A model generated the notes under the pieces. The model worked only from the letters and a program-made list of their open reading frames with translations, searched no databases and was not told the DNA's origin. Made by a program: the position numbers and the translations under genes. A stretch of DNA of 64,000 bases from a virus (lineage: Duplodnaviria > Caudoviricetes): positions 288,001-352,000 of the IMG/VR virus record IMGVR_UViG_3300021255_002539; one strand, written 5' to 3'. Below are positions 25,301 through 50,877 of the stretch, in pieces (position 1 is the first letter of the stretch; each line of letters begins with the position of its first letter).

Positions 25301-25729
25301 TCATTTACAAGTCAAAAGCAATTTCTTGACTTTTACAACATCTTTTTCCTTACACACTACATTGCAAACCCATTGATTCTGACTCTCCTTGTTGTCCATC
25401 ACATATCCACGGTGGACAGGACATACATGACCGTTCGACAAAGTGGCTATTGGATATTCAATTTTTGACAGCCTTTTTGCCACCATGTATCTCATCTGTT
25501 TTTTGTCAAGTCGGATATTAAACCACCCTTTTCGTATCAAAGGCAAATCCCATATTGAGGACAATCTATAGTCGTCTCCAATATGCCTTGCTATTGTCTT
25601 TTGCTCAGTAAGAACCTTTTCATAGGGAATGCCAAGGCAATATGCAATGCACCTTGATGTGCAGTTTGTTCTGGCATCTTGACTATTCGGCGTCAGTTCA
25701 ATGTATTTGAAATATTGCTTGTTTCGCAT
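25301..25729 (-). CDS. Conserved phage protein (C..R.IA...G.PY / GH...V..G family, papain-like?)
   Basis: Cys/His/Asp pattern. Confidence 0.55.
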   Translation of the reverse strand: MRNKQYFKYIELTPNSQDARTNCTSRCIAYCLGIPYEKVLTEQKTIARHIGDDYRLSSIWDLPLIRKGWFNIRLDKKQMRYMVAKRLSKIEYPIATLSNGHVCPVHRGYVMDNKESQNQWVCNVVCKEKDVVKVKKLLLTCK

Positions 25730-27138
25730 CAGAACTCCTTTTCGATTTCGTCAAGGTCCGCCAGCCACATGTCCTCTATGCTCTCTTTCTGGGTGGTCTT
25801 GATGAGTTCCTTCAATCCCTTGATCTTCTCTGTCAGCTCAGCCATCTTCTCCTTGGTGATTGAGGACATCGGCATGTTCAAGAGGTAGTTGAAGGAGCCG
25901 TCCTTTGGGACAATCTTGTCGGTCTTCTCCAACTGCTTGACGATATCATCCTTCTTCTTGTTCTTGATGTGGATTGTCTCGTCAATAACGCCCTTGCACC
26001 AGACATACTTGGAGACATCCAACTGAATCTCATCCATGTACTTGTTGAGCAGATAGGTCTTGCGCTTCTTATAGTATTCAAGACGGATCTTGATAAACGC
26101 ATCCAGAATCTCCTTGATGTTGTTGAACTCCCTGATTCTGTTGTTCTCGTCGATGCAATTCAACTGCTCGTTCAGTGGCTTCGCCAGGTTGAACACCTTT
26201 ACCCAACTGTCAATGTCCTTGTTGCTTTCGAAGAACACGCGCTTGACCTTGATGGTGAACTCAAACTTGTCGGTCTTTGGGTCAGAGAGGTCTTCGTAGT
26301 CCTCAATAGTCCCCTTCTCAACAAGATTGTCCAGAACCTTGATGTACGCCGCGTAGGTGTAGGTGATTGGTATCTCGGAAATGTGCAAAGTGTTGGAATT
26401 GACCTTCTCCACCACGCCATAGTTGACGACCTTGGTGTTGGTCTTCCCATCCGCATCCTTTTCCTTCACCAATTTCGTCTCGCCAGCAAATCCCTTGAAC
26501 CATGGCAATGCGTTCTCCACATGCGGAACCTTGTCAGCCTTGTTGAGGATTGCCCTGATGTACTTGAGGATGTCCTTGGGGTTGCGTGGGTATATTGTTG
26601 TCTTCCACCCAGTGGAGATTCCATCTGTGCCATTGAGGAACAGAATTGGAAATATTGGCATCATGTATTGAGGCTCTATTTCAGTGCCCTCGAACACTTG
26701 TGGTTTGCACAAGGCTCTGTCGGTCTCCATGAACAACTTGGAGGAGATTGGGGATATTGAGCAATATGTATAACGGGGGGCGGCTGCGCTTCCTGCTCCA
26801 CTGAATCTGGTGCCGAAGTTGCCATGTCCCTTCACCAATGGATAGTTGTTGCTTCCGACAAAGGATGCGGCCATTGTGTCCAGAACTTGAGTCAAACTCG
26901 CCTCTCCATGGAGGTACTCGGTGCATTCAGCGACAGAAGAAGCCAGTCTTGCGGTCTTGTTCTCGCTTCCTGGGTTTGGGAATTTCTTGAACAATGTGTA
27001 CATCACCTTGCGTTGGGACAGCTTCATGCCATCCACATAGGAGGCAATCTTGCGCAGGTTGTCGTATGCTCCATATGAAGGGGCGTCGTTTTCGTAGAAT
27101 TCAGAAAAGGATATCGTGTTTTTATCTGCATTGCTCAT
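25729..27138 (-). CDS. DNA topoisomerase II, gp52-like (GyrA/ParC-like) subunit
   Basis: DGMKLSQRK, YLHGE, GNFGTR, AAAPRY catalytic Tyr, NGTDGISTG. Confidence 0.95.
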   Translation of the reverse strand: MSNADKNTISFSEFYENDAPSYGAYDNLRKIASYVDGMKLSQRKVMYTLFKKFPNPGSENKTARLASSVAECTEYLHGEASLTQVLDTMAASFVGSNNYPLVKGHGNFGTRFSGAGSAAAPRYTYCSISPISSKLFMETDRALCKPQVFEGTEIEPQYMMPIFPILFLNGTDGISTGWKTTIYPRNPKDILKYIRAILNKADKVPHVENALPWFKGFAGETKLVKEKDADGKTNTKVVNYGVVEKVNSNTLHISEIPITYTYAAYIKVLDNLVEKGTIEDYEDLSDPKTDKFEFTIKVKRVFFESNKDIDSWVKVFNLAKPLNEQLNCIDENNRIREFNNIKEILDAFIKIRLEYYKKRKTYLLNKYMDEIQLDVSKYVWCKGVIDETIHIKNKKKDDIVKQLEKTDKIVPKDGSFNYLLNMPMSSITKEKMAELTEKIKGLKELIKTTQKESIEDMWLADLDEIEKEF

Positions 27139-28193: not shown

Positions 28194-30134
28194 TCAAACC
28201 TTCTCTATGTCCAAATTATACTCGCGGAGATATTGCTTTCGGATGTCAGTCTTGTTGGAGTTCAGCCAATCGTCCACCAAAACCCCATCCTTTTCGTCCA
28301 AACTAAAGTATTCCAGGAAGTCCTCTATGCCATTTGGGGACGAGTCGAACAGGTGCTGGAATTGCTCTGGACTCCACGACCCAAGACCCTTGAAGTAGTT
28401 TTTCTTGTATTTGGATATGTCGTGGTTGGCTTCATATGCCTTGTATTCGTCCAAAGTGTAGAACGCCTTGAATATCTTGGTCATCTTCTGGTCCGACCAC
28501 AATATCACAAGGGGTGTTCTCAATCTGGCAATCTTGTGCATGTTGAACAGCTCCTTGCCAAACTTCATCCACCACCCCAGGTATATCATCTGAATGTGCA
28601 GTCCATCTATGTCACTGTCGTTCGCAAGCACAATCTTGTCGAAGTTCAGGAACTTGTTGTCGTTCTTTGATGGGTCTATGCCAAGCAATGTGGTTATGTC
28701 AGAGAATTCCTTGTTCGAGAGCATTTGGGACACCTTGCAGTCCCACACATTCAATGGAACTCCACGTCCAGCATAGTATCCAATGCCTTTTCTGCCCAGA
28801 GCTTGGGAAATCCCGGTAGCGGCTGAAAACCCCTCCGCTATGATGAAATACTTCTTGTCGTTCCCTGTTGGCGATATGTACTTCGTGGCGTCTATCTTGA
28901 CTTTTGACCGACCCGCCTGCTTCAACGCCACGCGCTCCTTGACTTCCTCCTTCAACTTGAACGTCTCAACGATTGGGTCGAGGATGTATTCGTTCTTGAG
29001 AATGTTCTTTGCTAGCTTATTCCAATCAACAGAATCACCGAAGTACTTGGTTATCTCGGATGGCAGGTTTGTCAAGGTCTCCTTTGTCTGAGAGTCGAAC
29101 TTCAGGTTGGGGAAGTCCCGAAGGAACACAACCATGCTCAGACGGTTCTTGATGTCAGCTGGCTTGATTGTCTTGTACTTCTTCGTCAGCTTCTCCCTCA
29201 CAGGTCCAACCACTTTGTCAACTATGTAGTCGATGTGGGAACCACCACGGGTCAACGCCAGTCCATCTACATAGGTGAAGAAGTTGAATTCGTCAGAATC
29301 GTTGGGGTAGATGCCAATGAACCCTCGGTCGAATGTCTGGAAGGTGATGTGCTTGCTGAACAGATTGAGGAACGCCCGTTCGTTGACATTGACCTGTTTG
29401 CCGTTGAGGGAGAACTTGATTCCAGGAAAGGTGATGCCCAGGCAAATCAACCTCTGACGCATTAGTTCGACATATACATCCTCCACCTCGGTCATGTTGA
29501 ATCTGGCGAAATCAGGGTAGAACTTCACTCTGACTCCATGCGACTTGGATTCAGAAACCTCGGTCTGTACGGTCTCCAGGTTGTTCTTCGCAACCACCTT
29601 GCACATCTTCTTGCCATCGTCAGAAATGCCAACGAACTTCTTGGAGAAGATGGATGTGCATTTGGAGCCGAGACCATGTGAGCCAATCGTGGTCTTGTCG
29701 GCAGAATCCTTGAAGTTGGATCCAGAGAACAGGCGGGTCCACGCAATCTCTGGCAGGTAGGTGTTCGCAATCTTCTGCTTTTCCTCGTTGGACATTCTGC
29801 TGTCGGTGATGTCCTTTATGTCCTTTCGGATTACTGGGATGCCAGGCCCATCGTCCTCTATGTAGATCCACTCCTTGTCCATGACGACCTTGACCTTGCC
29901 CTTGCCCTTGCATGTCTTGATGAGGACGTCGATGCAGTTGTCTAGAACCTCGTCTATGATCTTCCTGAATGCGGGGATGAAAGTGACTTCCTTGTATTCG
30001 ACGCCCTCGCCATTCACCATGAACATCTTCTGTGTGAGTGGTGACATGCTGCCAATCCACATCTGTGGTCTCAATATGATCTGCTGTATGCCACTCAGCG
30101 CCTCAAAGTCTTCTGCTTGCTTGTTTGTCTTCAT
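28194..30134 (-). CDS. DNA topoisomerase II, gp39+gp60-like (GHKL plus TOPRIM) subunit
   Basis: RPQMWIGS, EVLDN, DDGPGIP, G.HGLGSK, EGFSA, DSDIDG, YFKGLGS. Confidence 0.95.
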   Translation of the reverse strand: MKTNKQAEDFEALSGIQQIILRPQMWIGSMSPLTQKMFMVNGEGVEYKEVTFIPAFRKIIDEVLDNCIDVLIKTCKGKGKVKVVMDKEWIYIEDDGPGIPVIRKDIKDITDSRMSNEEKQKIANTYLPEIAWTRLFSGSNFKDSADKTTIGSHGLGSKCTSIFSKKFVGISDDGKKMCKVVAKNNLETVQTEVSESKSHGVRVKFYPDFARFNMTEVEDVYVELMRQRLICLGITFPGIKFSLNGKQVNVNERAFLNLFSKHITFQTFDRGFIGIYPNDSDEFNFFTYVDGLALTRGGSHIDYIVDKVVGPVREKLTKKYKTIKPADIKNRLSMVVFLRDFPNLKFDSQTKETLTNLPSEITKYFGDSVDWNKLAKNILKNEYILDPIVETFKLKEEVKERVALKQAGRSKVKIDATKYISPTGNDKKYFIIAEGFSAATGISQALGRKGIGYYAGRGVPLNVWDCKVSQMLSNKEFSDITTLLGIDPSKNDNKFLNFDKIVLANDSDIDGLHIQMIYLGWWMKFGKELFNMHKIARLRTPLVILWSDQKMTKIFKAFYTLDEYKAYEANHDISKYKKNYFKGLGSWSPEQFQHLFDSSPNGIEDFLEYFSLDEKDGVLVDDWLNSNKTDIRKQYLREYNLDIEKV

Positions 30135-30192
30135 CAATAGTGTTCCTCAATTGTTCGATGTATTTCACACATTTACCCATATTATACACAAA

Positions 30193-30567
30193 TCATCTGT
30201 ATGCGTTTAGCATTCCCTCAATCAAGTCAGCATCTATGTTGGTGCTTCCATCGTCCGATTTGGTGATGAATATGCCTCCACTCTTGTCCACGAACATCAC
30301 CTTGTGTGTGAGGGAGACATCGAACATAAACTCAATGAACTCGTCCTTGCCCCTGTAGTTGGCGTCAGTGAATCCCACTACCCCAAAGTGGTGTGGATGA
30401 CCATCCTTGAACTTGACATCAAATACCCTCATGACAGTCTGCCGCCAACTCCATTGGGACATTATGTTCATCATGACCTCCCTTGGCATGCCATTGCGGG
30501 CCTCCAAGTCATATACATCAGACTTCAAGGTGATGGTGTTCCAGGATATGTTGTTCAGGTTTACCAT
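30193..30567 (-). CDS. TNID-family paralog 1
   Basis: FDVSLTHKV..SDDGSTNIDADLIE. Confidence 0.75.
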   Translation of the reverse strand: MVNLNNISWNTITLKSDVYDLEARNGMPREVMMNIMSQWSWRQTVMRVFDVKFKDGHPHHFGVVGFTDANYRGKDEFIEFMFDVSLTHKVMFVDKSGGIFITKSDDGSTNIDADLIEGMLNAYR

Positions 30568-30576
30568 AGATATGTT

Positions 30577-30945
30577 TCAGTCACCCACCTTTCCGACTAT
30601 TGCCTCTATGGTTTCTGCCTCAATTGGAGAACCCTCGATGGCCGTCTCCTCCACATACAAGTCGTGTGGTTCGGCAAGTCCGACGATTCTGTGGTAGTGC
30701 GCGATGTCGAACATGTCGCATATGAACTCGTCCCTTTGGCTGGACAGACAATAGTCCCTCGAAATCAGATCAACCTTTCCCAGATAGCCTCTTACGACCT
30801 TGTATATCCGAATCCAAGGGGTTTTTCCATATCCGAATGTCCACTGCAAATCCACATTCGTAATTGGATGCCGTTTAGCCCGGTCGAGGATGATTAAATC
30901 AAAGCGGTCTGCTGGATATGGTCGGTTGTCGGGCTTGAACATCAT
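30577..30945 (-). CDS. TNID-family paralog 2 (divergent)
   Basis: DMFDIAHYHRIVG..IEAETIEAIV. Confidence 0.7.
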   Translation of the reverse strand: MMFKPDNRPYPADRFDLIILDRAKRHPITNVDLQWTFGYGKTPWIRIYKVVRGYLGKVDLISRDYCLSSQRDEFICDMFDIAHYHRIVGLAEPHDLYVEETAIEGSPIEAETIEAIVGKVGD

Positions 30946-31331
30946 TTGCCAATCCCCTTCACGATTGCGTCAATCATATCAGCATCTATGTTGGTGGTGC
31001 CGTCCTTGGACTCCACGAGCGCGATGCACACCCCATAGGTCATGGTCAATACCCCTACCATCATGTGCGTAAGGGAGAGCTCCGACAGGTCTGAAACGAG
31101 GGAATCCTTTGCGTTTGGAAGCACATATAGGATGTCCCGCGCACACCACTTTCCATCCATTTGCTCTAGTTCATAGATGCGCACGAAGCCACTGCATCTT
31201 TTCTTCTTCGCACTTTGTATGCAGTCAATTGCTTTCTCGATGTCAAGGGGGACATTTGGGTTCTCCACCCATTCCCAATAGCCATTGAGTTTGTCCACCA
31301 CATACCACTTCACATTGTCGTCAAATACCAT
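30942..31331 (-). CDS. TNID-family paralog 3
   Basis: DLSELSLTHMMVG..SKDGTTNIDADMIDAIV. Confidence 0.75.
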   Translation of the reverse strand: MVFDDNVKWYVVDKLNGYWEWVENPNVPLDIEKAIDCIQSAKKKRCSGFVRIYELEQMDGKWCARDILYVLPNAKDSLVSDLSELSLTHMMVGVLTMTYGVCIALVESKDGTTNIDADMIDAIVKGIGK

Positions 31332-31728
31332 TGCCACTACCTCCTCCAATCTTCCTCACGATTGCGTCTATGACGTCTGCATCTATGTTGGTCTGGTGGT
31401 TTGGGGTCTCGGCCACTCCAATGCAGTTGTCTTGATGATTCAAGATGGGTCCAATGTAGATTATGCCATGCGAAAGGGATATCTCCGAGAGGTCAGATAT
31501 GATGCCATCTTTGTCATTGGGATTGTGGAACAGATTCTGAGCAAATGCGGGCCCACACTCGTCGCATATGATGTTTTTGATGTTGATGTCGAAGTTGTTG
31601 TCGAAATTCCATCTGTCTATCGCCTGCACAATCTCGTCCTTTGTCAGGAACCTCTTTCCCCTCCAGAAGTTGCTGCTGCATCCAGTGAGGGCAAATGTCA
31701 TGGTTCTTCTCTCGTCGTCGAACACCAT
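31321..31728 (-). CDS. TNID-family paralog 4
   Basis: DLSEISLSHGII..QTNIDADVIDAIV. Confidence 0.75.
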   Translation of the reverse strand: MVFDDERRTMTFALTGCSSNFWRGKRFLTKDEIVQAIDRWNFDNNFDINIKNIICDECGPAFAQNLFHNPNDKDGIISDLSEISLSHGIIYIGPILNHQDNCIGVAETPNHQTNIDADVIDAIVRKIGGGSGNGI

Positions 31729-31729
31729 G

Positions 31730-32194
31730 TCAACGCCACCTCGGCTTTCTGTCCTCGATTGCCTCCTTCACCACATCGACCAGGGTGGTCAGAACCTCGT
31801 CGTCTATGTTGGTACTGAAGTCCTTTGTCTTCTGGAGGTATATGCCAGTGAGGGTGTCCATGGAGGCATACCGTATTGTATAGCCCTCTATGGACGCCTG
31901 GAAGAGATATCCAACCAATTCGTCCAAGTCCTTGAGTTTTTCCATGTCAAAGGCTACTTTCTCGCATTCAACATCGTCGAATCTGCTCCAATCTGATTCT
32001 GAATTATCCCACAGAATCTTGCTGACCTTGATGTGGAACGAAGTGAAGTCCCACTTTTCCTGGAGGATGTGCAAAACCTTGTCCTTGGTGAACCACGGCA
32101 TCGTCTCGTGGTTATATGAGTGAAGCCGTCCATGGAGAAGCTCTGACTTCTCGCCTGCCCAAAGGTTGGATTTCCCGTATTTGTGCATCGTCAT
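31730..32194 (-). CDS. TNID-family paralog 5
   Basis: TKDFSTNIDDEVL. Confidence 0.7.
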   Translation of the reverse strand: MTMHKYGKSNLWAGEKSELLHGRLHSYNHETMPWFTKDKVLHILQEKWDFTSFHIKVSKILWDNSESDWSRFDDVECEKVAFDMEKLKDLDELVGYLFQASIEGYTIRYASMDTLTGIYLQKTKDFSTNIDDEVLTTLVDVVKEAIEDRKPRWR

Positions 32195-32586
32195 TCCATC
32201 CTCGCTGTGGGGATTGGCTTGAACCACTTGAGCATTCTGTTCAGAACCTTGTCGTCTATGTTCAACTCATTGGTGTCCATGGTGCTTCTGATCCAGATGA
32301 TGCCATTCCCAATCTTGACTATGCAGTGGAGGTCGGCCAGCATCCCCATCTCCGCAACGAAGTCGTCAGAGTCCACATCGAAGAAGAACCGCCGGGCCAT
32401 TGCCTTTGTCCTTAGACATTCGTCCTCCTTGCCACACAATGTAGCCACCACGACAGACGAGGACTGCATGTCGAAGTCCCGAATGGCTTTCTTCACCTGA
32501 GACAGGGACATTGCTTTTTTCAGGTAGATTTCCTTGTAGTATTTGGAATACAGCAAGTCAAAGTGCTTGATGCCTTTGTAGTTCAT
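32191..32586 (-). CDS. TNID-family paralog 6 (divergent)
   Basis: ELNIDDKVL. Confidence 0.65.
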   Translation of the reverse strand: MNYKGIKHFDLLYSKYYKEIYLKKAMSLSQVKKAIRDFDMQSSSVVVATLCGKEDECLRTKAMARRFFFDVDSDDFVAEMGMLADLHCIVKIGNGIIWIRSTMDTNELNIDDKVLNRMLKWFKPIPTARME

Positions 32587-32996
32587 ATGTTATCCTGCGC
32601 CTCCACCATCCTCTTGAATGCCTCCATCACTTCACCATCTATGTTGGTCTGGCCATCATTGGATTCCTCGAAGTACACGCGAATCGCCCAGGACGAATCT
32701 GTCCAGCCAATCCCCACTATTCTATGGGAAAGCGAGATGTCGAACAAGTCAACCAACAGTTGTTCGCCACCACCAAACTCCAATCCATACAGACGGCCCC
32801 TCTTTTTGTTCCATCGCCCTTCCTTGAATACCTCGTACACCAGCATTCCTCGCCACTTGCCAGTCTTTGTGGAGTCATCCAGTTTCTGGACAATATCCTG
32901 GGATGTCAAATTGCACTGCTTCTTCAATGTGCTTTTGTCAAGGGAGGATTGGGCACATGTGACACAATTTGACTTGTCGAACATTTTTCCTGCCAT
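32583..32996 (-). CDS. TNID-family paralog 7
   Basis: DLFDISLSHRIVG..SNDGQTNIDGEVME. Confidence 0.75.
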   Translation of the reverse strand: MAGKMFDKSNCVTCAQSSLDKSTLKKQCNLTSQDIVQKLDDSTKTGKWRGMLVYEVFKEGRWNKKRGRLYGLEFGGGEQLLVDLFDISLSHRIVGIGWTDSSWAIRVYFEESNDGQTNIDGEVMEAFKRMVEAQDNI

Positions 32997-32997
32997 G

Positions 32998-33504
32998 TCA
33001 AGTACCCTCCTCGTATTTGGCGTACTTCGCTTCGTCGCCAGGCTTCTCGTTGTCCTCCCAAGTACCCCATTTCAGAATACAACCAGCCAGGCCGACATCC
33101 CCCCACTGAGGATACGACCAATAGGCATAGGCGTTCTGAATCGACTCTGCACACAAGTCGAAGTGAAACCTTGCCTCCTTGCCCTCTGTACCATCCTTGT
33201 CAATGTCCTTGGCATAGTCAGCCATCAGCTTGACGTTCCTGACCGCATTCTCCCTCGCAGTGAGGGGCTTGAACCCAGCGTCGAAGATGTTGAAGTTGAA
33301 GTTGAGGAAAGTGGTGTCTGCTGCGAAATACTCGTTGACCCAACAAAGGTATTGATATGCCTCAGGGTTGTTGAGCGGCAGACGAATGTCGTACAAGTCC
33401 TTGTCCTTCATGTACTCAATGAACTTAATCCCAAAGCCAAGATTCCTTATGTCGTTGTACTCTGGGTCGTCCTTTTCCCGCGCCTTGATTTCAGGAATTT
33501 CCAT
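32998..33504 (-). CDS. Hypothetical early protein
   Basis: First gene after the class I promoter at 33538-33567; AAGGAG SD. Confidence 0.7.
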   Translation of the reverse strand: MEIPEIKAREKDDPEYNDIRNLGFGIKFIEYMKDKDLYDIRLPLNNPEAYQYLCWVNEYFAADTTFLNFNFNIFDAGFKPLTARENAVRNVKLMADYAKDIDKDGTEGKEARFHFDLCAESIQNAYAYWSYPQWGDVGLAGCILKWGTWEDNEKPGDEAKYAKYEEGT

Positions 33505-33537
33505 TGTTTGCCTCTCCTTGATTTCCCTACGCCACAT

Positions 33538-33573
33538 ATTATATCATATTTGATGCTGTGCTGTCAATACCCC
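33538..33573 (-). promoter_or_regulatory. Class I promoter
   Basis: GGGGTA-TTGACA-N18-TATAAT with extended -10. Confidence 0.8.
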
Positions 33574-33955
33574 CTATGGGGGACATTATGTTCAACAGAA
33601 GCTCCATTACGTCTGTGGTTATGTTTGTCTTTCCATTCTTGGATCTCGCCAGATAGATTATGGCGTTGTCTGGATTGAACTCAACTATGTTGTGCGTGAG
33701 GGAGTACTTGAACAAGTCGGACATGAACCTGTCTTTGTCCAATGGAACATTGTACGCATATGATCGCAGGATCAGAATCTCGTCTGGCGGTATACCAAAG
33801 TCCATCTCAAACACATCTATTATCACAATCCCCGAACAAAACCGACCAAGCTTGGACTTCAGTTCTGATTTCCCAATTACGTGCTTGTAGTACTCCTTCT
33901 CAATCAAATTGGGCATCTTCCAGTGTCCGTTGAGTACCATCCCATCGCCTATCAT
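33539..33955 (-). CDS. TNID-family paralog 8
   Basis: DLFKYSLTHNIV..SKNGKTNITTDVME. Confidence 0.75.
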   Translation of the reverse strand: MIGDGMVLNGHWKMPNLIEKEYYKHVIGKSELKSKLGRFCSGIVIIDVFEMDFGIPPDEILILRSYAYNVPLDKDRFMSDLFKYSLTHNIVEFNPDNAIIYLARSKNGKTNITTDVMELLLNIMSPIGGIDSTASNMI

Positions 33956-34317
33956 CGGACGACCTCCTTCCCATCCACCTTGGAATTGTCGATGGTTCCG
34001 CCATTGTTCAAGACAATTGCCTCCACCAATTCTGCGTCAATGTCGTATCCCTTCTTGCCAGCGCACTCGTCCTTGCACACCTGAAGTACTGAACACCATG
34101 AAGTCGTAAAGCCGCCTTCACCCCTTTTTGGTAGTGAGATGCATCCATACGACATCGCCTTGTGAGTCTTGGATATGTCGAACAACCTGCACATGAGGTC
34201 GTCCTGGCCGTCGGGCATGTTGAACTTCTCAAACCGCCCAGCCTCGTCTGTGTACACGATGCCAACCGAATCTGACACCCATGTGTGCCTCCATATTTCC
34301 TTGGCTAGTCTGTTCAT
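33952..34317 (-). CDS. TNID-family paralog 9
   Basis: LFDISKTH..YDIDAELVEAIV. Confidence 0.7.
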   Translation of the reverse strand: MNRLAKEIWRHTWVSDSVGIVYTDEAGRFEKFNMPDGQDDLMCRLFDISKTHKAMSYGCISLPKRGEGGFTTSWCSVLQVCKDECAGKKGYDIDAELVEAIVLNNGGTIDNSKVDGKEVVR

Positions 34318-34718
34318 GCATTCACCTTCCTTGCGTATCTTCTGTTCATCGTGTCAATCAGCTCTGGGGTGATGTTGGTCTCCCCATTCTTGGATTCAAC
34401 CACAGTAATCACATCAGACAAGAAGCTCATCTGGGAATTGTAGTCATACAGGGTTTTGCCACATTGGTAGTCTATGACATTGAATCCCAAGGACAGGTCG
34501 AACATGTGGCAGGCGAGGTCTTCAGTCCTCTCTGGAACCGGAAAAGACCATACAGTCCCAATCTTCGTCCGAGACAGCCCGCGCACCACCACCTTCTCTA
34601 TGAACAGAACCGTGTTGTGGCGTATGAAGTCCTCCAGACTCTTGTGGTCGAGCGGGAACATCCTCTCAACCATTGAATTCTGATAGTCCTGCTGCTCAAA
34701 CGATTCGCCTGCCATCAT
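34314..34718 (-). CDS. TNID-family paralog 10
   Basis: MFDLSLGF..SKNGETNITPELID. Confidence 0.75.
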   Translation of the reverse strand: MMAGESFEQQDYQNSMVERMFPLDHKSLEDFIRHNTVLFIEKVVVRGLSRTKIGTVWSFPVPERTEDLACHMFDLSLGFNVIDYQCGKTLYDYNSQMSFLSDVITVVESKNGETNITPELIDTMNRRYARKVNA

Positions 34719-34727
34719 GGTCAAATC

Positions 34728-35168
34728 TCAACTCCCCCTTCTTTTGTTGAATTGCTTGGCAACCTTCTTCTGTATTTCCATCATGGCCTCCATCACTTCG
34801 TCGTCTATGTTGGTGCTTCCATCCTTGGACTCCTCCACAACTATCTCCAGGTATTCTGCATCCAGTGCAACCAACTTGTATGTGAGGGACAAGTCGAACA
34901 AGTCTGCGCATAGATCATCAAAGTCCTTGGGCAAATAGTATTTCCCAATCATGCGAGCCTCCATGTATTCGAATGGTTTGGCCGTGTAGATGTAGTCTTC
35001 GGTATTTCGGACTTCGTAGATGTTAGTACACAAATGGAACTCAGTCACCAATTTCTTGTTCTTCGTGTCGTTGTATGACTTCCTCCAAGTGAGTCTTCGC
35101 CCCTCATGCACCAATTCTTCCAACGACTTGGACACCATCGACCAATCCCGAGTTTTGTCTATTGCCAT
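34728..35168 (-). CDS. TNID-family paralog 11
   Basis: DLFDLSLTYKLV..SKDGSTNIDDEVME. Confidence 0.75.
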   Translation of the reverse strand: MAIDKTRDWSMVSKSLEELVHEGRRLTWRKSYNDTKNKKLVTEFHLCTNIYEVRNTEDYIYTAKPFEYMEARMIGKYYLPKDFDDLCADLFDLSLTYKLVALDAEYLEIVVEESKDGSTNIDDEVMEAMMEIQKKVAKQFNKRRGS

Positions 35169-35171
35169 TTC

Positions 35172-36137
35172 TCACCTCCCAACATGGTTCAGTTTGTCGA
35201 GTTTGCTCCATTGGAAGGGCAAGTTGAAGAACTCAAGCAGGTCTGGGTACTCCAGCATCCCCTTCACCCTCCTGGGGCAGTGGTCGTAGATGTAGAGGAA
35301 CAGGTCAAGCACATCGAACTGGGTCTCCACCATGTTCATGTCGAACACAGTCTCCTCGAAGGACATCTCCTTTCCGGGTCCGGTCGCTGCCAGGTTCTTG
35401 GGACATCTGCCGTACATGTCTTCCCACAGGGCGTAGTTGAACTCGTTGCAGGGATATTCAACATCAAGCACATTGAACACCCAGTTGAAGATGTCCACCT
35501 CGTTCGCAATCAACAACTGCTTGAGCAATTCGTTCGTGGCGTGGACGAGGGGCTTGGTGTAGTTCAGGCTATTGGCGAGTGCCTTGAGAACTATGAACTG
35601 CGCCTTTGTGGAGAACCTGAGGAAGTTGTTCGCCATCAGCATCGACCGACCCAGGTACGAGTGGTTGAGGATATACCTGATATCGCGTTCGTCTTTCGTC
35701 ATGACCTCCACCAACTTGAAGAAGTCAACATCCCCAGATGCGACATTTGCGTCGTCCAGAAGCCCACCCTTGTATCCAGAACTGCGGAACTTGTAGAACT
35801 CCGGGTCTGACCTAATCACCTGCTTGAGGAAGTTCCTGATGTCGGGTCGGTAGTCCTCCTGAATCAACAGCCCCATGAGCATGTTCGTGGCGAAGCACTT
35901 GTCCACCGGCTGCAAGTTCACGATGTGCTTCACCAGGAAGTCGTTGATTCGGTATGGGTGCGCAGCGAGGTCGTAGAGGTCGTACACATAGGCACTGTGC
36001 TGGTATATCTCCCCAATCTGCTTCTCATGACCCTCCAGGAAGGACACGACAACCTCAAGGTCTGTTCCATCCAGAACCATCTCGTCCAGAACCTTGGACA
36101 AGGACACCTCGGTGGATATTGACTGGTCGTAGTTCAT
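35172..36137 (-). CDS. Hypothetical early protein (about 321 aa, helical)
   Basis: First gene after a class I promoter; GAGGT SD. Confidence 0.75.
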   Translation of the reverse strand: MNYDQSISTEVSLSKVLDEMVLDGTDLEVVVSFLEGHEKQIGEIYQHSAYVYDLYDLAAHPYRINDFLVKHIVNLQPVDKCFATNMLMGLLIQEDYRPDIRNFLKQVIRSDPEFYKFRSSGYKGGLLDDANVASGDVDFFKLVEVMTKDERDIRYILNHSYLGRSMLMANNFLRFSTKAQFIVLKALANSLNYTKPLVHATNELLKQLLIANEVDIFNWVFNVLDVEYPCNEFNYALWEDMYGRCPKNLAATGPGKEMSFEETVFDMNMVETQFDVLDLFLYIYDHCPRRVKGMLEYPDLLEFFNLPFQWSKLDKLNHVGR

Positions 36138-36163
36138 TGTGGCATTACCTCTCAACGCCACAT

Positions 36164-36199
36164 ATTATATCATATTCGAGCTGGAATTGTCAATACCCC
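36164..36199 (-). promoter_or_regulatory. Class I promoter
   Basis: GGGGTA-TTGACA-N18-TATAAT. Confidence 0.8.
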
Positions 36200-49913: not shown

Positions 49914-50285
49914 TCACCATTTCATTGTAAACACGATTCCCATCTTCTCGCGCCGTTTTCTCCATATGGTGACTACATCCACGATTTGTTCTATGATGTC
50001 CCAGGTTATGTTGGTGTTGCCATCCTTGCTTTCAGTGAGTGAGAACAGAACGCTTCTTGTCCAGGAGTTCTCCACCTCCACATAATCCATGGTATATGCC
50101 AAAGACCACTTGGCGAGGGTTTCTATGAGTTGATCCTTGTTGATTTGCTTGACATCCAGTGTATCGCCAAATTGACCATTTGACAAGTATATGGAGTGGA
50201 CATCCTCTGTCTGGACGAGCAGGAGGACTTGTCCAATCGCCTCCACCAGCTCGTAGTCGTCGTGTATCCAAATTGCCCGTTCCAT
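49914..50285 (-). CDS. TNID-family paralog 12
   Basis: LAKWSLAY..SKDGNTNITWDIIE. Confidence 0.7.
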   Translation of the reverse strand: MERAIWIHDDYELVEAIGQVLLLVQTEDVHSIYLSNGQFGDTLDVKQINKDQLIETLAKWSLAYTMDYVEVENSWTRSVLFSLTESKDGNTNITWDIIEQIVDVVTIWRKRREKMGIVFTMKW

Positions 50286-50496: not shown

Positions 50497-50877
50497 TTAG
50501 AATTCTGAATCAAACTTGTCATCAACAACCTGTCTTTCCCTTAGACGCTTCTGCTCTATTGCTTGTGCCACCCCAACCAATGCGTCAATCACATCTGCGT
50601 CTATGTTGGTGGAGAAGTCGGTCGAGGGTGTAATTCCAATTTCCAGACATGTGGAGTTTGGGATGCACAAAGACGTTATGGCGCACTTGAGGGAGAGGTC
50701 TGGCAGAATGTCAATCAGTTTTGATGGGGTTGGGTTCTGGTGCATCTTCCAACAATGGTCGTACACATACATGTCGAGATCGAAGTCGAGCATTGGGTTC
50801 GCCAATATGTTCTGCCCAAATGCCGCAATCTTCTGCAACATGTATTGCTTGCCAATCTCGCCAGACAGGTTGGTCAT
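50497..50877 (-). CDS. TNID-family paralog 13
   Basis: LPDLSLKC..STDFSTNIDADVIDALV. Confidence 0.7.
   Translation of the reverse strand: MTNLSGEIGKQYMLQKIAAFGQNILANPMLDFDLDMYVYDHCWKMHQNPTPSKLIDILPDLSLKCAITSLCIPNSTCLEIGITPSTDFSTNIDADVIDALVGVAQAIEQKRLRERQVVDDKFDSEF

Follow-up and report, generated by a model that had tools for sequence, protein, structure and literature searches.

Positions 30193–35168 of a 64,000-base stretch of DNA, which is referred to here as the window and comprises bases 288001–352000 of a 414,060-bp uncultured phage record (IMGVR_UViG_3300021255_002539), hold the largest cluster of a phage-specific multigene family in that 414-kb genome. Twelve small, close-packed genes lie on the minus strand of this region, of which eleven are family members and one (g8) is unrelated, and the genes form two translationally coupled operons behind consensus host-type promoters. 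The sequence comparisons and structure prediction described below lead us to favor, with about even confidence, the reading that the family is a repertoire of early host-directed proteins, each of which would bind a different target in the infected cell.

Organization of the Gene Array

Successive genes of the array are joined by a 4-nt ATGA overlap or separated by a gap of 1–9 nt, with Shine-Dalgarno-like runs before the starts. This agrees with the first-pass annotation of the window, which had described the genes as mostly coupled by overlapping or adjacent stops and starts. The same annotation had placed near-consensus promoters at 36164 and 33538, and at both positions a TTGACA-N18-TATAAT sequence is found that matches the consensus in 12 of 12 bases. 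With refined starts, the eleven members are 121–154 amino acids (aa) long. The features are listed below from promoter P1 to the last gene of the array, with the leave-one-out E-value of each member. L014, L015, L016, and L018 are related contigs, and names beginning with P0 are homologues.

36164–36193, minus strand: promoter P1, TTGACA-N18-TATAAT (12/12) with a TG extended −10, driving the lead gene g13 and the upstream sub-array
35172–36134, minus strand: the 320-aa lead gene g13, which does not belong to the family; start at ATG 36134
34728–35168, minus strand: g12, 146 aa; E 1.5e-14; ortholog in L014; P0003 is 60% identical
34314–34724, minus strand: g11, 136 aa, TTG start; E 1.5e-7; ortholog L014_4262
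33952–34317, minus strand: g10, 121 aa, the most divergent member; E 4.7e-5, and alignment
33539–33955, minus strand: g9, 138 aa, its 3′ end containing P2; E 1.8e-12; P0001 is about 80% identical over both halves
33538–33582, minus strand: promoter P2 and stem-loop, a cassette resembling the promoter-early stem-loop (PeSL) type; promoter at 33567–33538 (TTGACA-N18-TATAAT, 12/12), stem-loop CCCCC-ATA-GGGGG at 33582–33570
32998–33504, minus strand: g8, 168 aa, a non-member that splits the array; start at ATG 33504 with an AAGGAG Shine-Dalgarno sequence (open reading frame 32998–33537)
32583–32996, minus strand: g7, 137 aa; E 1.6e-10; P0004 cluster
32191–32586, minus strand: g6, 131 aa, basic, with an isoelectric point (pI) of 8.7; E 1.4e-4; well-supported ortholog clade in 4 of 4 relatives
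31730–32194, minus strand: g5, 154 aa; E 1.2e-4; start at ATG 32194 (ATGA overlap with the g6 stop); ortholog L014_8016, 65% identity
31321–31728, minus strand: g4, 135 aa; E 3.5e-12
30942–31331, minus strand: g3, 129 aa, the modelled copy; E 9.1e-13; start at ATG 31331, a column that is Met in 131 of 141 sequences
30577–30945, minus strand: g2, 122 aa, motif TN replaced by SP; E 1.7e-7; ortholog L014_7960
30193–30567, minus strand: g1, 124 aa, the last gene of the array; E 4.3e-10; orthologs in L014, L015, and L018

Reality and Extent of the Family

Membership was assessed by scoring each gene with a profile hidden Markov model (HMM) built without that gene, with E-values calculated for Z = 1e6 sequences. 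By this measure 11 of the 12 array genes score as family (E 1.5e-14 to 1.4e-4), and they are the same eleven genes that the first-pass annotation had grouped as paralogs. Several member pairs are significant by BLASTP even at a database size of 1e8 residues. An iterated profile search of the whole genome converges on 27 copies in seven clusters, distributed as follows (genome coordinates).

6.1–9.5 kb: 6 copies
68.5–70.7 kb: 5 copies
189 kb: 1 copy
217 kb: 1 copy
318.2–323.2 kb (the array): 11 copies
337.9–338.9 kb: 2 copies
390.5 kb: 1 copy

Two members outside the array lie within the window, and both are found by a profile HMM built from the array genes only.

49914–50285, minus strand: further family member, 123 aa; E 6.7e-9; 15 kb from the array
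50497–50877, minus strand: further family member, 126 aa; E 5.2e-9

Beyond this genome, a profile search of 1.84 billion metagenome cluster representatives returned 490 proteins at E ≤ 1e-3, of which 71 reach E ≤ 1e-10; nearly all of the 490 are 100–190 aa long and none is named. Scans of IMG/VR and of 185,579 prokaryote genomes with the motifs ESKDG[ST]TN and KDG[ST]TNID recovered the same phage lineage only, or nothing. As far as these searches reach, the distribution of the family is phage-only. No significant match in Pfam, PHROGs, NCBIfam, or PADLOC was obtained for the array genes, for all 27 copies, or for 141 family sequences; the curated-family searches gave only isolated single-member hits (E 6e-4 to 8e-3). 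Sequence-profile searches of the PDB found nothing, megablast of the array region found no match among GenBank phages, tblastn with three members found nothing relevant there, and an ESM Atlas search with g12 gave no usable hit. The family, which had been called unrecognized from its translations, is matched in none of these family, PDB-sequence, or GenBank phage collections. An insignificant alignment and an HMM match to a characterized family had been named beforehand as outcomes that would speak against it; both were looked for, and neither applies.

The proteins appear from their translations to be small, soluble, and mostly mildly acidic. The pI is 4.3–6.3 in 22 of the 27 copies and at most 8.7, and inspection of the translations by eye revealed no hydrophobic segments suggesting membrane insertion. 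No fusion partners were found among the longer proteins, although this is weak evidence, and the longer homologues carry no Pfam domain. Four homologues, P0123 (230 aa), P0175 (350 aa), P0036 (193 aa), and P0150 (191 aa), have N- or C-terminal extensions of 60–200 residues with no Pfam domain, and could be fused forms or products of mis-called starts. The 27 copies end in TGA (19), TAA (6), or TAG (2), and the family genes have no in-frame TAG. The two TAG-ending genes, at genome positions 70276–70668 and 189121–189567, both lie outside the window; their products would be lengthened at the C-terminus if TAG were read through late in infection.

Relatives, Copy Number, and Evolution

The array is followed immediately downstream by genes for both subunits of a T4-type split type II topoisomerase, identified by Pfam; the large-subunit gene serves as a conserved anchor.

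28194–30137, minus strand: topoisomerase II large subunit, GyrB-like (ATPase, Toprim); Pfam; conserved anchor downstream of the array, 55 nt after g1
25729–27138: topoisomerase II medium subunit; Pfam; 36–38% identical to the best GenBank phage matches

Five related contigs were fetched via this anchor gene (homologues 70% identical), and 4 of the 5 carry the array at the same place. The number of family genes upstream of the topoisomerase gene differs among them.

L014: 13 family genes
L015: 6 family genes
L016: at least 5 family genes (the contig end cuts the locus)
L018: 4 family genes

The conserved layout is P1, g13, 0–5 family genes, P2, g8, 4–8 family genes, and topoisomerase. Two complete relatives (418 and 434 kb) have 25 and 21 copies, in five to seven clusters. 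Across related phages, a comparison to which the first-pass annotation had pointed, copy number is 4–13 at the array locus with totals of 21, 25, and 27.

Residue identity among paralogs is much lower in the N-terminal part than in the remainder: 12% before helix 2 of the predicted structure versus 28% over the rest for the 11 array copies, and 10% versus 25% for all 27. Between orthologs in related genomes, the N-part is 28–79% identical and the C-part 44–80%. Since the N-half is low in identity among paralogs yet kept among orthologs, it is both copy-specific and conserved, which fits distinct, maintained functions of the individual copies. In a maximum-likelihood tree of 55 members, the terminal branches are long (median 0.95 changes per site), and at least 7 of the 11 array genes fall into well-supported one-to-one ortholog pairs or clades. 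The long branches and one-to-one orthologs together indicate that the duplications predate the split of these phages and that copies have been retained or gained differently from one array to the next. In metagenome variants sharing at least 90% identity, variation in the N-part and C-part was 22% versus 22% in one cluster and 12% versus 23% in another; neither these near-identical variants nor the ancient duplications give any sign of ongoing hypervariation.

Promoters

The genome contains 28 perfect TTGACA-N16-19-TATAAT promoters (P1, P2, and 26 others), 27 of them on the minus strand, whereas about 0.2 would be expected from base counts. The G+C content is 48%. Nearly all 28 carry a longer motif downstream of the spacer, AATATG-N-TATAATAT-N-GG(C/T)G, and as a group they seem to form an early promoter class specific to the phage. 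When the pattern is relaxed slightly, 53 sites are found in the genome versus 2–9 in shuffled sequences, and 26 of the 27 family genes lie 3–3765 bp downstream of such a site on the same strand; because the family genes are clustered, this association amounts to about six of the seven independent clusters. From their sequence, we infer that these promoters are read early by the host RNA polymerase.

The stem-loop CCCCC-ATA-GGGGG directly abuts the −35 box of P2; no clear stem is seen at P1. A short C/G palindromic stem abuts the −35 box in about 10 of the 28 perfect promoters, and RNA folding upstream of the promoters is no stronger than at random sites (mean −7.6 versus −6.5 kcal/mol). The arrangement at P1 also precedes the g13 homologue in L014, L015, and L018, and in L014 and L018 a promoter with a palindromic stem abutting the −35 box (TAGACC-AAA-GGTCTA and similar) precedes the g8 homologue.

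Predicted Structure and Conserved Residues

An AlphaFold model of g12 built with the 27 paralogs only was confident in the C-half, the N-half being poor (predicted local distance difference test, pLDDT, of 66). With a 141-sequence alignment, the model of g3 reached a mean pLDDT of 90.3 and a predicted template modelling score (pTM) of 0.83, with no residue below a pLDDT of 50. It consists of a short helix (residues 23–27), helix 1 (37–49), and strands 1–2 (55–64 and 67–76), followed in the second part by helix 2 (81–91), strands 3–4 (95–103 and 106–113), and helix 3 (123–133). On this model each copy is predicted to be a single compact domain, with a four-stranded sheet to which both halves contribute.

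The first-pass annotation had proposed a constant docking domain joined to a separate specificity domain. The copy-specific N-halves and the common C-half stand, but the two-domain design is not supported, as the g3 model is one compact domain. The shared C-terminal module likewise exists, though it spans about 55–60 residues, from helix 2 to helix 3, and not the 45 first given. The N-halves had been described as unrelated, which is borne out by their 12% identity among paralogs but not by the profile, in which helix 1 and strands 1–2 are aligned and occupied in 90–99% of the 141 sequences, with a conserved hydrophobic pattern.

The family signature lies in the second half and comprises D-x-L-x-x-L-F-D-L-S-L-T-H after helix 2 and E-S-x-D-G-x-T-N-I-D before helix 3. 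In the 141 sequences, the Asp column at the start of helix 2 is Asp in 96 and Glu in 31; in the Leu-Phe-Asp-Leu-Ser-Leu-Thr-His stretch, Ser is present in 135, and the last position is His in 74, Tyr in 26, and Lys in 15; in the Glu-Ser-x-Asp-Gly-x-Thr-Asn-Ile-Asp loop, Thr is present in 129, Asn in 138, and Ile in 134. The strictly conserved Ser, Thr, Asn, and Ile sit in turns and a helix cap. Given this placement, and given that the His is often Tyr or Lys, the conserved residues look structural or interface-like more than catalytic. In g10 (33952–34317), the E-S-x-D-G-x-T-N loop is replaced by a 20-residue insert with three Cys, the flanking helices being kept; g10 is a possible metal-binding or functionally shifted variant.

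Structure searches with the models produced no convincing relative. Foldseek searches against the PDB and BFVD gave best E-values of 0.14–0.28 (0.26 for the g3 model), and VIA-align comparison of the g3 model with 48,161 PDB representatives gave a best Z of 3.1. A second look at the Foldseek top 1000 raised the best Z to 3.7, for the protein L B1 design 1kh0_A (root-mean-square deviation of 3.1 Å over 59 residues), and glutamine synthetase N-domains scored a Z of about 3. Residues 53–115 (strands 1–2, helix 2, and strands 3–4) superpose weakly on these two domains, but helices 1 and 3 are left uncovered, no sequence relation is seen, and the scores are far below the level of a shared fold. The predicted strand-strand-helix-strand-strand core is at most beta-grasp-like. 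The best Z from VIA-align is typically 7–8 for unmatched models. By these comparisons the g3 model is unusually isolated in structure space, although a missing match is no proof of a new fold.

Proposed Role and Alternatives

If the family is a repertoire of early host-directed proteins, the host RNA polymerase would transcribe its genes immediately after infection, an expectation that arises because the family sits behind host-type consensus promoters. Each copy would then bind a different host or phage macromolecule through its own N-half surface, the conserved half would hold the fold and may contact a common partner, and the copies together would act as a battery of early host-takeover or defense-neutralizing binders. 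The differing copy number (4, 6, at least 5, 13, and 11) at one syntenic locus between conserved genes supports such a role, and the old duplications combined with selective retention of copies argue for a standing repertoire rather than a recent gene accordion. Several observations weigh on the other side. The early timing is read from promoter sequence, and the conserved cluster of acidic and polar residues (D, D/E, S, E, S, D, T, N, D) may just as well form a site for a metal or ligand. None of the proteins examined is fused to a known domain that might hint at a function. Near-identical variants show no excess variation in the N-part, in a weak, protein-only test that is disturbed by truncated variants, and ancient duplications with no excess change in the N-part are not the picture that a fast arms race would be expected to leave.

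The conserved cluster gives rise to an alternative to which we assign a low probability, namely that the copies are small enzymes or ligand- or metal-binding proteins in which the S-L-T-H and E-S-x-D-G-x-T-N-I-D loops form a shared site and the variable half tunes substrate choice. The strong conservation is indeed nearly all polar or acidic and concentrated in two loops after helix 2 and strand 4, with Ser, Thr, and Asn near-invariant in the 141 sequences. However, Tyr or Lys replaces the candidate catalytic His in 41 of the 141 sequences, and Pro or Lys replaces the Glu in 34; g2 and g10, which lack the T-N pair, nevertheless persist and have orthologs; the searches matched no enzyme family or fold; and a need for 27 copies of a single enzyme in one phage would be difficult to explain. 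The constant linkage of the downstream sub-array to the topoisomerase genes prompts another reading, in which the proteins are phage-internal early factors, accessory to replication, topoisomerase, or transcription, and do not act on the host. The sub-array adjoins the upstream side of the type II topoisomerase genes in all five related contigs (across a 55-nt gap here), and the flanking genes g13 and g8 are conserved as well. This reading also seems rather unlikely: only 1 of the 7 clusters adjoins topoisomerase genes, the variable copy number speaks against a core role, and the family is absent from all other GenBank phages with T4-type topoisomerases.

Still less probable is that the paralogs are subunits of a hetero-oligomer, joined through the conserved half with each copy in a different position. 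The conservation of one half in all copies, the translational coupling, which favors set amounts, and the age and stable retention of the paralogs would all suit such an assembly, but copy numbers of 4–13 at the same locus and totals of 21–27 in related phages are unfit for a fixed stoichiometry, and separate promoters serve the seven clusters in which the copies lie. Membership in a distant branch of the Panacea antitoxin domain (SocA/PanA, PF13274) is very improbable. It was suggested by an ESM Atlas feature search with the homologue P0216, in which 25 of 30 hits fell in PF13274-carrying clusters (score 0.92), but the Atlas tool warns that equal agreement arises for one third of shuffled proteins. 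PF13274 has no match in the whole genome at E ≤ 1, in the 141 members at E ≤ 0.01, or in 10 members at E ≤ 10. The Panacea domain folds into six helices with a small sheet of three strands and carries a conserved GPV motif (PMC8832971), whereas the g3 model sets three main helices against a four-stranded sheet and the 141-sequence alignment has no GPV column. Panacea membership thus fails all the tests that were run (HMM, predicted fold, and GPV motif) and survives only as a functional analogy.

Within the preferred reading of host-directed binders, a bolder form, which we consider unlikely as it stands, is that this 400-kb phage lineage has used a new fold to build a library of 20–27 neutralizers, each blocking a different host defense effector or toxin. 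If true, the library would be the functional equivalent, on the phage side, of Panacea antitoxins or immunity-protein arrays, and no phage would be known with a larger counter-defense repertoire on a single scaffold.

Comparison With Known Systems

Many small genes packed behind strong host-type early promoters are also seen in the host-takeover module of Bacillus phage SPO1, in which about two dozen small genes are clustered behind strong early promoters and for which a takeover role has been shown. Such an arrangement would suit proteins that act on the host without delay. The SPO1 genes differ in that they are not known to be one paralog family, and for the present array a host-takeover role is only presumed. 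No sequence match that would indicate an SPO1-like similarity was found in PHROGs or GenBank phages. That the family cluster lies inside a large terminal redundancy, as in SPO1 or T5, is ruled out, the terminal overlap or repeat of the record being only 107 bp.

The array also resembles the hyperplastic regions with PeSL cassettes of T4-type phages (Arbiol et al., 2010, PMC2839356; Comeau et al., 2014, PMC4122927), which in the RB49/phi1 pair combine G(n)-loop-C(n) stems with near-perfect sigma70 boxes (PMC4122927). In both cases, blocks of small accessory genes lie between conserved core genes and their content varies among related phages, here with 4, 6, at least 5, and 13 family genes versus 11. 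Both also have near-perfect TTGACA-N17/18-TATAAT promoters, sometimes with a stem-loop directly ahead; the combination of stem-loop and sigma70 promoter is found here at P2 (33538–33582) and in the relatives. Unlike the PeSL regions, whose genes are mostly unrelated ORFans, the present loci hold one family with 4–13 copies, recurring in seven clusters, and a stem is present at only about 10 of 28 promoters. Panacea/PanA antitoxins (PF13274; PMC8832971) and the tandem immunity-protein arrays of polymorphic toxin systems are alike in concept, in that one small scaffold is diversified to neutralize many partners, sometimes with many copies per genome, and the present family could act in a similar way. 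The present family differs from Panacea in the lack of an HMM match, in its predicted fold, and in the lack of a GPV motif. Tandem diverged small paralogs, as in immunity-protein arrays, are present here, while the neighbors g13 and g8, of unknown function, have no toxin domain recognizable by Pfam.

Most genes of very large phages have no known role, and this one unnamed family accounts for 27 genes here and 490 clusters at 50% identity; its structure, predicted with confidence, is unlike any solved one. Should the copies prove to be host-directed binders, they would provide a ready natural set of variants on one scaffold for studying how phages target host functions and defenses, and the family could be a new binding scaffold. 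If the role is enzymatic or structural instead, the family would still be new, as would probably its fold. Its presence also marks this phage lineage.

Flanking Genes and the Topoisomerase Junction

The gene that splits the array, g8, has no leave-one-out hit to the family and an hhalign profile-profile probability of 0.1%, which rules out family membership, even of a hidden kind. Nor did it enter the array recently: homologues that are 46–50% identical hold the same position in L014, L015, L016, and L018. The protein is Trp/Tyr-rich, with two blocks that are invariant across four genomes (L-P-x-N-N-P-x-A-Y-Q-Y-L and G-L-A-G-C-x-x-K-W-G-T-x-E-D-N), and its gene always comes first after promoter P2, opening the downstream sub-array. 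A functional link between g8 and the family is possible. The lead gene g13 has homologues of 36–52% identity at the head of the array in L014, L015, and L018; the GTG start at 36161 that was originally listed for g13 overlaps promoter P1. Searches of Pfam, PHROGs, and the PDB gave no match to any family or solved structure for either g8 or g13.

The 55 nt that separate g1 from the topoisomerase gene (30138–30192, minus strand) contain TGTGTATAAT and then GGTAAATG. At the same spot ahead of the topoisomerase gene, a TTTACA-N17-TATAAT promoter is present in L015 and L018. Transcription of the topoisomerase genes may start from a separate promoter of a different class.

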